Shown here: positions 47,722 to 51,960 of the stretch, piece by piece
How positions within the stretch are numbered: the stretch's first letter is position 1
Layout: every line of letters begins with the position of its first letter
Assembly: GCF_054482595.1 (NCBI RefSeq)
Contig: NZ_CM137008.1
Reading direction: 5' to 3' (one strand)
Length of the DNA stretch: 64,000 nt
The notes under the pieces: generated by a model
The model's input: only the letters and a program-made list of their open reading frames with translations
What the model was told of the DNA's origin: nothing
Database searches by the model: none
Translations under genes and position numbers: made by a program

Positions 47722-48061
47722 TACCGTTGTCTCTCGTCCAGGTTTACTCCTGATAGAAAGTCATCGGCATTTGACGGTAATTACTTACGACTAAAAGCCT
47801 CTTTGCGTCACATTTTTACAACAATTATTGCAGAGAAGATTAATGCCATTGGAATGAAGAGAGTAACGAATGGTTAAACTGGCTAACCCGAATGACGAAA
47901 AATTCTGGAAAACAGCACGCAATTTCGTCAGGTGATTATTTTCGTCCCTAAGGAAACCACATAGGATGCTCACGGGTGCCTGAGACTTTCTGTTTTCAGG
48001 CTAACCGGGAATCAGAAAGACGAAGGCCCCGACCGATATTTCTATCAACCGAGGCCAACGA

Positions 48062-48269
<208 letters not shown>

Positions 48270-48675: not shown

Positions 48676-48739
48676 TAATAGGCGCTTCCGATGTAGACCC
48701 GTATTCTTCGCCTGTACCACGGGTCGGTTTTAGTACAGG
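48676..48739 (+). ncRNA. rydC: RydC small regulatory RNA
   Basis: tataat -10 at 48664..48669; transcript begins cttccgatgtagaccc...; terminator stem cgcctgtac/gtacaggcg followed by ttttcttt; convergent with cybB. Confidence 0.55.
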
Positions 48740-48758
48740 CGTTTTCTTTAAATATCCT

Positions 48759-49289
48759 TCAGGAACGTTTACGCGGCATCATGCGTAGAAGTGTGTTGTC
48801 CTTCCAGAAATAGTGGTGTGCCAGTGCAGCCGCAGCGTGCAACCCGATGAGAAAATATCCCAGATTCGCCAGCGTCTCATGCCACGACTTTAAGCTATCA
48901 ACCCGTTCGAAATTGGCCTCTGAAGCGTAAGGCATCGTCAAACCAAACACAAACCACGGGTTGCCCCGGTTATACATCATCACCAAACCAATCACTGGCA
49001 GCGCAATAAACAGGAGATAAATCACCAAATGTCCCAAATGCGCCAGTCCCGTCATCATCGGTTTCGGCTTAGGTATAATCGGCGGGGTTGGGTATTTCAG
49101 TCTTAACAAAAGACGAACCACCATCAGCACGAGAATTGAGATGCCACAGGAAACATGAATCATGTTGATGAGCGGCCGATCGCTACGTGGGAAGAAACCC
49201 CGAAACTCCATTGCGCAATACGCTGCGATAACCAGCAAAAAGACCAGCCAGTGAATGCTGATTTGTAACCTTGAGTATTTATTTTCCAT
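48759..49289 (-). CDS. cybB: Cytochrome b561
   Basis: ORF 48759..49325; start placed at MENKYSRLQISIHWLVF for 176 aa; haem-ligand histidines in membrane helices. Confidence 0.85.
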   Translation of the reverse strand: MENKYSRLQISIHWLVFLLVIAAYCAMEFRGFFPRSDRPLINMIHVSCGISILVLMVVRLLLRLKYPTPPIIPKPKPMMTGLAHLGHLVIYLLFIALPVIGLVMMYNRGNPWFVFGLTMPYASEANFERVDSLKSWHETLANLGYFLIGLHAAAALAHHYFWKDNTLLRMMPRKRS

Positions 49290-49477
49290 AACATTTCCTG
49301 CTTTAACATAATTTTCCGTTAACATAACGGGCTTTTCTCAAAATTTCATTAAATATTGTTCACCCGTTTTCAGTACGTTACGTTTCACTGTAAGAATGGA
49401 GATTGCCCATCCCACAATCCTGGGCTAAGCCTGGAAAGGATCAATTTTCATCCGAACGTTCCTGACAGGAGAAAACC

Positions 49478-50479
49478 ATGAGTAAAGTTGGTATTAACGG
49501 TTTTGGTCGTATCGGTCGACTGGTGTTGCGTCGATTACTTGAAGTCAAAAGCAACATAGACGTTGTCGCTATTAATGATCTTACTTCCCCAAAAATTCTC
49601 GCCTATCTGCTGAAACATGATTCAAACTATGGTCCGTTCCCCTGGAGCGTTGATTTTACGGAAGATTCACTTATCGTTGATGGGAAAAGTATCTCGGTTT
49701 ACGCCGAAAAAGAGGCTAAAAATATTCCGTGGAAAGCGAAAGGTGCAGAAATCATTGTCGAATGTACTGGCTTTTATACCTCCGCCGATAAATCGCAGGC
49801 GCATCTTGATGCTGGTGCGAAGAAGGTGTTGATTTCCGCTCCTGCCGGTGAAATGAAAACCATCGTTTATAACGTTAATGACGACACTCTGGATGGCAAC
49901 GATACCATTGTTTCCGTGGCGTCATGCACCACTAACTGCCTTGCGCCGATGGCCAAAGCCTTGCATGACAGTTTCGGGATAGAAGTCGGCACGATGACGA
50001 CCATTCATGCCTATACTGGCACCCAGTCACTGGTGGATGGCCCGCATGGTAAAGATTTACGTGCTTCACGCGCCGCGGCAGAAAATATCATTCCCCACAC
50101 TACGGGCGCGGCAAAAGCCATTGGTCTGGTGATCCCGGAACTGAGCGGCAAACTGAAAGGTCATGCGCAACGCGTGCCGGTGAAAACAGGTTCGGTCACT
50201 GAACTGGTATCGATTCTCGGAAAAAAAGTGACTGCCGAAGAGGTGAATAACGCACTTAAACAAGCAACCACCAATAACGAGTCATTTGGTTATACCGATG
50301 AAGAAATAGTCTCTTCCGATATCATTGGCAGCCATTTCGGTTCGGTGTTTGATGCCACGCAAACGGAAATTACCGCCGTGGGCGATTTACAACTGGTGAA
50401 AACGGTCGCCTGGTACGATAACGAATATGGCTTCGTCACGCAGCTTATTCGCACCCTCGAAAAATTCGCTAAACTCTGA
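49478..50479 (+). CDS. gapC: Glyceraldehyde-3-phosphate dehydrogenase C, uninterrupted
   Basis: Continuous 333-aa ORF with NAD-binding GFGRIGR and active-site SCTTNC. Confidence 0.85.
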
Positions 50480-50520
50480 CGCGCACAGGCGGAGGAAAAA
50501 ACCTCCGCCTCTTTCACTCA

Positions 50521-51960
50521 TCAAGACTGTAAATAAACCACCTGGGTCTGCAGATATTCATGCAGGCCATGTTTACCATCTGCGCCGCCAATACCGGATT
50601 TACGCCATCCGGCGTGGAAGCCTTGCATAGCTTCGAAGTTTTCACGGTTGATGTAAGTTTCACCAAACTTCAGCCCTTTAATGGCTTTCATCGCGACGTT
50701 CAGATTTTGGGTATAGATTGATGAGGTCAGGCCGTAATCACTGTCATTAGCCATTGAGATAGCATCTTCCAGCGTGTCAAATGCGACTACCGGCAGAACC
50801 GGGCCAAAGGTTTCCTCATGCATAATCGACATTTCCTGGCGAACATCCAGCAGCAATGTCGGCGGATAATAATATCCTTTCCCCTCTACCGCTTTGCCAC
50901 CCAACGCCACTCTCGCCCCTTCTTCTACTGCGCGCGCCACTTTTTGCTCGACCCTTTCCAGCGCCGCGGCGTTAATCAACGGCCCCATCGCAATGTCGTT
51001 GCGTTCAGCGGGGTTACCAAATTGAACCGCCTGCATCGCTTCACCCAGCCGATTGACGAACTGATCATAAATGCCTTTCTGTACATAAACACGTTCTGCA
51101 CAGTTACACACTTGCCCACTATTAATGACACGTGAATCAACGATGGCTTTGACTGCCAGTTCAAGATCGGCATCGTCCATTACGATAGCTGGTGCTTTAC
51201 CCCCCAGTTCCAGGCACACTTTGGTGATGTTTTTCGCCGCAGTCGCCATGATCTTCTCACCTGCAGAGACGCTGCCTGTCATACTGACCATTGCGACCTT
51301 TGGGTTACCCGCCAGTTCTTGCCCAACGGTTTCACCACGCCCCAGAACAAGGTTAAACACGCCGCGCGGAAGGCCTATTTCATCGACGATTTTGGCGAAT
51401 GCAATCGCATTGTTTGGCGTAAATTCACTGGGTTTAATGACAATGGTATTACCAGTCAAAAGAGCGGGAGCCATTTTGCGGGCAATGAGGAAGAACGGGA
51501 AGTTCCACGGCAGAATGCCGGTAGTCACACCAAGCGCACGTTTAAACAGAAGAATATTTTCTCCTGGACGATCGCTTTGAATAATCTCGCCCTCGTAACG
51601 CCGTGCCCACTCCGCCATGTAATCGATATAGTCGGCAGTAAAAGCCACTTCGACTTCAGCCAGCTGCTGGATCTTGCCCCCTTCTTCAACAATCAGCGCA
51701 CTGATTTCACTGGCGCGTTCGCGGATCCCGGCGGAGATTTTGCGCAACCAACTGGCGCGTTCAATTGCAGGCAACGCTTCCCATTCTGGTTGTGCACGTT
51801 CTGCTGCATCGATTGCCTTACGGGCATCCTCGGCCTGACCATCGGGAATGCGGGAAATGACAGCCTCTGTAGCAGGGTTTACCACATCAATCCATGCGTC
51901 TCCACGCCAGGTAACAAACTGTCCATCAATATACATAGGATGTTGAACGGGTACTGACAT
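50521..51960 (-). CDS. aldA: Lactaldehyde dehydrogenase
   Basis: 479-aa aldehyde dehydrogenase ORF; synteny. Confidence 0.9.
   Translation of the reverse strand: MSVPVQHPMYIDGQFVTWRGDAWIDVVNPATEAVISRIPDGQAEDARKAIDAAERAQPEWEALPAIERASWLRKISAGIRERASEISALIVEEGGKIQQLAEVEVAFTADYIDYMAEWARRYEGEIIQSDRPGENILLFKRALGVTTGILPWNFPFFLIARKMAPALLTGNTIVIKPSEFTPNNAIAFAKIVDEIGLPRGVFNLVLGRGETVGQELAGNPKVAMVSMTGSVSAGEKIMATAAKNITKVCLELGGKAPAIVMDDADLELAVKAIVDSRVINSGQVCNCAERVYVQKGIYDQFVNRLGEAMQAVQFGNPAERNDIAMGPLINAAALERVEQKVARAVEEGARVALGGKAVEGKGYYYPPTLLLDVRQEMSIMHEETFGPVLPVVAFDTLEDAISMANDSDYGLTSSIYTQNLNVAMKAIKGLKFGETYINRENFEAMQGFHAGWRKSGIGGADGKHGLHEYLQTQVVYLQS

Follow-up and report, generated by a model that had tools for sequence, protein, structure and literature searches.

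The closest described enzyme to the one considered here is EcGAPDH1 of Escherichia coli (WP_000048667.1 in E. coli B REL606, O104:H4 and AR434; UniProt P58072 for O157:H7), which oxidises D-glyceraldehyde-3-phosphate (D-G3P) with NAD+, with a Km for G3P of 0.73 mM (PMC8615399). Activity was abolished in the C150A mutant and reduced about 10^4-fold in C150S or H177A (about 8000-fold for H177A), and crystal complexes have been reported with NAD+, phosphate, G3P, the thioacyl intermediate and 1,3-bisphosphoglycerate (PMC8615399). The assays were performed at 50 °C and pH 10 (PMC8615399), conditions which tell little about the physiological role of the enzyme.

The gene encoding this type of protein, gapC, is broken in E. 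coli K-12. The sequence-only reading of the DNA described below had described it as two pseudogene fragments, in agreement with the record: in NC_000913.3 gapC is b4493, a pseudogene of 1001 bp flanked by aldA and cybB, formerly divided into gapC_1 (b1417) and gapC_2 (b1416), names that appear in a table of PMC4512719. Outside K-12, intact gapC is already known from the literature, UniProt, RefSeq and the PDB. It is on record in Hidalgo et al. 1996 and, for natural isolates, in Espinosa-Urgel and Kolter 1998 (both as cited by later papers), and is found as UniProt P58072 (O157:H7), in the RefSeq annotation of thousands of genomes and in PDB structures; the gene even serves as an E. coli qPCR marker (PMC10614358). 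The novelty that the sequence-only reading had implied for an intact copy does not hold, as this is the majority state in E. coli and already in the literature.

With respect to expression, a sigma-S RNA polymerase ChIP-seq peak has been reported at the gapC_1/cybB region of K-12 (PMC4447067), and a table of K-12 genes with differential expression gives gapC_1 a value of 5.6-fold, in a paper dealing with RpoS and cAMP-CRP in carbon-limited growth (PMC4512719). According to a paper co-authored by Espinosa-Urgel, environmental isolates have an intact gapC, whose expression is preferential in fresh water (PMC2949598). When low-temperature or physiological studies of E. coli GapC were sought in the literature, only papers on plant and Staphylococcus GapC came up.

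The DNA investigated here, referred to as the window, is the whole stretch of 64,000 nt taken from contig NZ_CM137008.1 of assembly GCF_054482595.1, an E. coli strain. The gapC locus in this window comprises the following features:

48759..49289, minus strand: cybB (cytochrome b561 / superoxide oxidase), divergent from gapC; RefSeq CDS of 531 nt
49290..49477, no strand: cybB-gapC intergenic region, 188 nt, divergent, presumed to hold the gapC promoter
49467..49471, plus strand: putative Shine-Dalgarno sequence AGGAG, 6 nt 5' of the gapC ATG
49478..50479, plus strand: gapC, 333 codons, ATG start, TGA stop at 50477-50479, predicted type I NAD-dependent glyceraldehyde-3-phosphate dehydrogenase (GAPDH)
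50487..50510, no strand: GC-rich hairpin with a 9-bp stem and a 6-nt loop
50521..51960, minus strand: aldA (aldehyde dehydrogenase A), convergent with gapC after a 41-nt gap; supported by the ORF and by the XH990 and K-12 annotation

That gapC forms one unbroken ORF of 333 aa, as had been claimed from the letters alone, is borne out by the ORF listing, which gives exactly 49478..50479 on the plus strand, from ATG to TGA. An open frame of this size has a chance probability of ~(61/64)^333, about 1e-7. The claimed proximity to aldA was likewise found, the two ORFs converging with 41 nt between them. The AGGAG motif, read from the sequence, is the same in 18 out of 18 aligned alleles, and presumably acts as a functional Shine-Dalgarno sequence. 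The order cybB-gapC-aldA is present in K-12, in XH990 and in 13 of 16 other sampled strains, and the remaining three share the gapC-aldA side.

The hairpin between gapC and aldA is predicted to fold as RNA with -18.1 kcal/mol (z = -4.5 versus shuffles) and its stem is conserved in 18/18 alleles; it is probably a terminator shared by both genes, and its weak U-tract explains why a simple terminator scan missed it. On the other side of gapC, the ORF of cybB (48759-49325, minus strand) reaches an upstream in-frame ATG, giving a protein of 188 aa compared to the 176 aa of RefSeq that start at 49289; with this longer form, the cybB-gapC intergenic region would be only 152 nt. A sigma-70 consensus scan of 49200-50700 returned one weak site (49283-49312), located in the 5' end of cybB, although shuffled sequences would be expected to give more, and no gapC promoter was identified in this interval. 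Two small RNAs were detected by Rfam further along the cybB side, both as in K-12: the sRNA RydC (48685-48748, plus strand, 92.5 bits), which lies immediately 3' of cybB, and the antitoxin RNA sok of hokB/sokB (47974-48125, plus strand, 109.7 bits).

In two of the sampled strains an IS1A-family element replaces the cybB side, at ~112 nt (REL606) and ~139 nt (2017.13.01CC) 5' of the gapC start. The IS1 sequence occupies positions 1-190 of the REL606 locus and 1-160 of the 2017.13.01CC locus, at the place matching ~49290-49366 of the window, and it might affect the transcription of gapC in E. coli B strains.

The predicted protein matches TIGR01534 (type I GAPDH) with 448.1 bits (E 1.8e-134, cutoff 367.2) over profile positions 1-330 of 330, and the Pfam domains Gp_dh_N (PF00044, 123 bits) and Gp_dh_C (PF02800, 197 bits). 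A 100% identical CDS in XH990 has been annotated as WP_021556770.1, type I GAPDH. Other members of the superfamily were considered on the basis of curated cutoffs and rejected: a GapA-type GAPDH (NF011954 / PRK15425, 299.1 bits against a cutoff of 662), Epd (NF010058, 282.6 versus 539 bits; TIGR01532, 279.3 versus 530.55 bits) and the ArsJ-associated GAPDH (NF033735, 308.2 bits against 450), the neighbours at this locus being cybB and aldA. A type II GAPDH was also ruled out on these curated cutoffs.

Both motifs that the sequence-only reading had assigned to the ORF, the NAD-binding motif and the catalytic SCTTNC, were located, and the functional sites can be given as follows:

49490..49519, plus strand: Rossmann-fold dinucleotide-binding motif, codons 5-14, containing the NAD contacts R11 and I12; invariant across the orthologues and GapA
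49922..49939, plus strand: active-site peptide SCTTNC, codons 149-154 (S149-C150-T151-T152-N153-C154), with Cys150 as nucleophile
50006..50008, plus strand: His177, codon 177 (CAT), catalytic base, on which H177A data exist for EcGAPDH1 (PMC8615399)

In total, the window protein keeps nearly all the residues to which PMC8615399 assigns a part in catalysis, phosphate binding or NAD contact, namely R11, I12, D34, S120, S149, C150, T151, H177, T180, T182, T209, G210, R232 and N315. The GxGxxG motif is found as G8-F-G10-R-I-G13, together with D34. In Rossmann folds in general, an acidic residue at a position of the D34 type favours NAD over NADP. The phosphate sites are complete as well, with T180, T182 and R232 in the Ps site and S149, T151, T209 and G210 in the new Pi site; the roles of these residues, as well as the participation of R11 and I12 in the NAD contacts, were taken from the work on EcGAPDH1 (PMC8615399). 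The same publication mentions an "Arg78" among the NAD+ contacts, at a position where the window and the sequence deposited in the PDB both have Lys78 (YAEKEAK; 49709-49711, codon 78), so that this exception does not represent a real difference and is probably a labelling slip in PMC8615399.

The best PDB match of the window protein is this same E. coli enzyme (7C5F, 7C5H, 7C5P, 7C7K and mutants), with 330 identical residues over 333. The sequence of EcGAPDH1 in the PDB equals the GapC of REL606, O104:H4 and AR434 at all 13 sites that vary among the intact alleles sampled, and the three substitutions by which the window protein departs from it are A73S, E104D and R190H. The published G3P:NAD+ oxidoreductase activity therefore refers to the allele with R190, A73 and E104; for the exact allele of the window, we infer its activity, as well as its expression and physiological role. 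The suggestion that gapC may encode a second functional GAPDH agrees with every sequence criterion for a phosphorylating GAPDH that was applied here and with the identity of 330/333 with the active EcGAPDH1, and we estimate at about 0.88 the probability that the product is indeed a functional NAD-dependent GAPDH.

An alignment with the K-12 gene, which had been proposed along with the original observation, gave 98% nucleotide identity with the same neighbours and a 188-nt upstream region within 1-5 positions. The lesions that distinguish K-12 (R18G, the TAA stop K39* and a frameshift by shortening of A7 to A6) are all missing from the window, where the corresponding sites read:

49529-49531, plus strand: codon 18, CGT (Arg); R18G in K-12
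49592..49594, plus strand: codon 39, AAA (Lys); A>T at nt 115 of the gene gives the TAA stop of K-12 and of all four broken alleles examined
50221..50227, plus strand: homopolymer A7 (gene nt 744-750); A6 in K-12, causing a frameshift

Arg18 is invariant in every aligned orthologue and in GapA. The window gapC is best explained as the intact, ancestral form of the E. coli gene.

All four broken alleles examined (K-12, H1, BL12 from duck and 2017.13.01CC from human) carry R18G, K39* and A6 together, and two of the four present an extra deletion of a T at nt 988. They are 5-7 sites apart from the nearest intact allele, that of AR434. The sharing of one triple-lesion allele, with so few differences from AR434, points to a single and fairly recent ancestral inactivation, which would have occurred in nature in a lineage that includes human and duck isolates. 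Independent decay in the laboratory does not fit the sequences of these broken alleles. Compared to the phrasing used in the literature, this is a nuance. The shared triple-lesion allele and the ~20% frequency of the lesion haplotypes, described below, are mildly new, as is the rare R190H change of the window allele.

The gapC locus was detected in 5417 of 5426 complete E. coli genomes, with 90-100% nucleotide identity and one copy per genome. Nine complete genomes lack a gapC match and a few contain a truncated match only, such as SCPM-O-B-7615 (20% coverage); matches on records labelled as plasmids amounted to 5 out of 5429. The census of intact and broken alleles was approximated by combining diagnostic 61-71-mers, a ranked spread sample and the inspection of 17 alleles besides the window, among them K-12, O157:H7, O104:H4, E. 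coli B REL606 and the most divergent ones (95% identity). Of the 5426 genomes, 1152 contain an exact match to the K-12 61-mer with TAA39, 1041 to the K-12 70-mer with A6 and 1425 to the A7 71-mer. Among the 39 full-length matches of the ranked spread sample, 30 span 1002 nt and nine span 1000-1001 nt. The sampled alleles of 1002 nt (the window and 13 others) were all open (14/14) and are annotated by RefSeq as CDS, and the three short alleles sampled (H1, BL12 and 2017.13.01CC) were all flagged as pseudogenes. Taken together, the K-12 k-mer counts and the sampled alleles imply that approximately one fifth of the complete genomes harbor a broken gene of the K-12 type and about three quarters or more an intact one. 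By this approximation, intact gapC is the rule in E. coli and not the exception. As a working copy is lacking in about one fifth of E. coli genomes, gapC is dispensable in at least some lineages.

The 14 intact alleles show 83 segregating nucleotide sites and 13 variable amino-acid positions. Nei-Gojobori dN/dS values against the window lie between 0.04 and 0.12, and mean dN divided by mean dS gives 0.044, indicating that the intact alleles are under strong purifying selection. Orthologues of GapC with 87-96% protein identity were found in E. albertii, Citrobacter, Trabulsiella, Klebsiella oxytoca, K. grimontii, Enterobacter, Phytobacter, Scandinavium and Pseudescherichia. It is conceivable, although we regard it as rather doubtful, that gapC represents a natural presence/absence-of-function polymorphism instead of a laboratory casualty, maintained perhaps by niche, for example life in a secondary aquatic or low-temperature environment versus a host-restricted one.

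The allele of the window is rare: only 27 of the 5417 genomes carry a gapC that is at least 99% identical to it. Two of its three differences from EcGAPDH1 fall at positions that vary among the orthologues (A, T or S at position 73; D or E at position 104). The third is lineage-specific among the sampled E. coli alleles:

50045..50047, plus strand: R190H, codon 190 (CAT, His), in the S-loop

All 13 of the other intact E. coli alleles have Arg at residue 190, as do 14 of 15 aligned GapC-type sequences; one K. oxytoca protein has His there and GapA has Ser. The S-loop has been reported as related to the entry of NAD+ into the catalytic domain (PMC8615399), and in this lineage R190H could tune cofactor binding, or may result in reduced or altered kinetics.

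Three alternatives to a functional enzyme with the expected activity have to be weighed. The intactness of the ORF might be an artefact of the assembly, a miscounted A7 hiding a real frameshift, a suspicion which arises from the fact that the K-12 frameshift sits in the very same A-run and that some sequencing chemistries are prone to errors in homopolymers. However, TAA39 and R18G are missing too, so the haplotype of the window is clearly not of the K-12 type, and the A7 71-mer counted above occurs exactly in 1425 complete genomes. Moreover, at least 12 independent assemblies of duck, human, pig and chicken origin, among them O157:H16 Santai and XH990, match the 20 kb around the window gapC with 100% identity, which indicates that neither the A7 run nor H190 is a sequencing error. 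The homopolymer artefact is thus effectively refuted, its remaining probability being negligible. A real but silent or impaired gene deserves more consideration: R190H might cripple the binding of the cofactor or the contacts within the tetramer, or the promoter might go unused, and gapC would then be a cryptic gene turning into a pseudogene in the lineage of the window. The near-invariance of Arg190 in E. coli and in GapC-type sequences, the rarity of the allele, the mutational loss of the gene in about 20% of the genomes and the failure of the scan to find a clear sigma-70 promoter all speak in its favour. On the other hand, the His of the K. oxytoca orthologue and the Ser of GapA imply that residue 190 is not strictly required for catalysis, and we judge R190H to be most likely tolerated. 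In addition, the catalytic and phosphate-site residues are all unchanged, the allele has been kept without change in those genomes from different hosts, and the 188-nt upstream region is equal to that of TW10573, with 1-5 differences from other phylogroup-typical intact alleles and from K-12. For these reasons a silent or impaired gapC is considered improbable.

A catalytically competent GapC could also have its main role elsewhere, acting on another phosphorylated aldehyde, in the gluconeogenic direction or as a moonlighting protein. Glycolytic GAPDH is already supplied by GapA, to which GapC is only 47% identical, the paralogue Epd is an example of how this fold can change its substrate, in that case to erythrose-4-phosphate, and the neighbour aldA is annotated as acting on other aldehydes. 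Against this, the cutoffs for Epd and for the ArsJ-associated enzyme are missed (282 vs 539 and 308 vs 450) and the protein passes no equivalog cutoff but the generic one for type I GAPDH. In addition, a 99% identical enzyme uses NAD+ to oxidise D-G3P and produces BPG in the crystal (PMC8615399). Nor do gapC and aldA form an operon, as their orientation is convergent. Such a different main role appears even somewhat less probable than a silent or impaired gene, and we retain the reading of gapC as a functional NAD-dependent GAPDH.

As such, GapC would be a homotetrameric, NAD-dependent, phosphorylating type I GAPDH, in which Cys150 would attack the aldehyde of G3P, with His177 acting as the base and hydride being transferred to NAD+, after which phosphate would resolve the thioacyl intermediate to give 1,3-bisphosphoglycerate. 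This corresponds to the textbook mechanism of GAPDH, for which structures of the near-identical EcGAPDH1 provide the documentation. Within the cell it would most likely be an accessory enzyme with stationary-phase (sigma-S) or environmental expression, rather than the main glycolytic enzyme; this role was derived from the literature, as no promoter was assignable from the sequence.

The intact gapC of the window is real, ordinary and already known, and as a discovery it matters little. It does bear on the use of K-12 as a reference, as metabolic models derived from K-12, assumptions on the essentiality of gapA and knockout designs do not transfer automatically to strains with intact gapC, and strains like that of the window can in principle make a second GAPDH. 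Furthermore, the K-12 lesions constitute an allele shared by natural isolates, with haplotypes in ~20% of complete genomes, which corrects the framing of gapC as a case of laboratory decay.

With regard to the known systems, the housekeeping enzyme GapA (b1779) shares fold and chemistry with GapC, including His177, Arg232 and the WYDNE motif, but is encoded at a different locus, shows 47% identity to the window protein (154/327) and differs in the S-loop (DGPSHKDWRGGR in GapA). Epd (GapB, erythrose-4-phosphate dehydrogenase) belongs to the same GAPDH superfamily, and the window protein is not Epd, given that its 282 and 279 bits lie below the equivalog cutoffs of 539 and 530. With 47% identity to GapA and with the GapA-type, Epd and ArsJ cutoffs all failed, GapC represents a distinct bacterial-type isoenzyme. 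The counterpart of the window protein is EcGAPDH1, which is encoded at the same cybB-gapC-aldA locus, has the same length and is identical to it in all catalytic, phosphate-site and NAD-contact residues.
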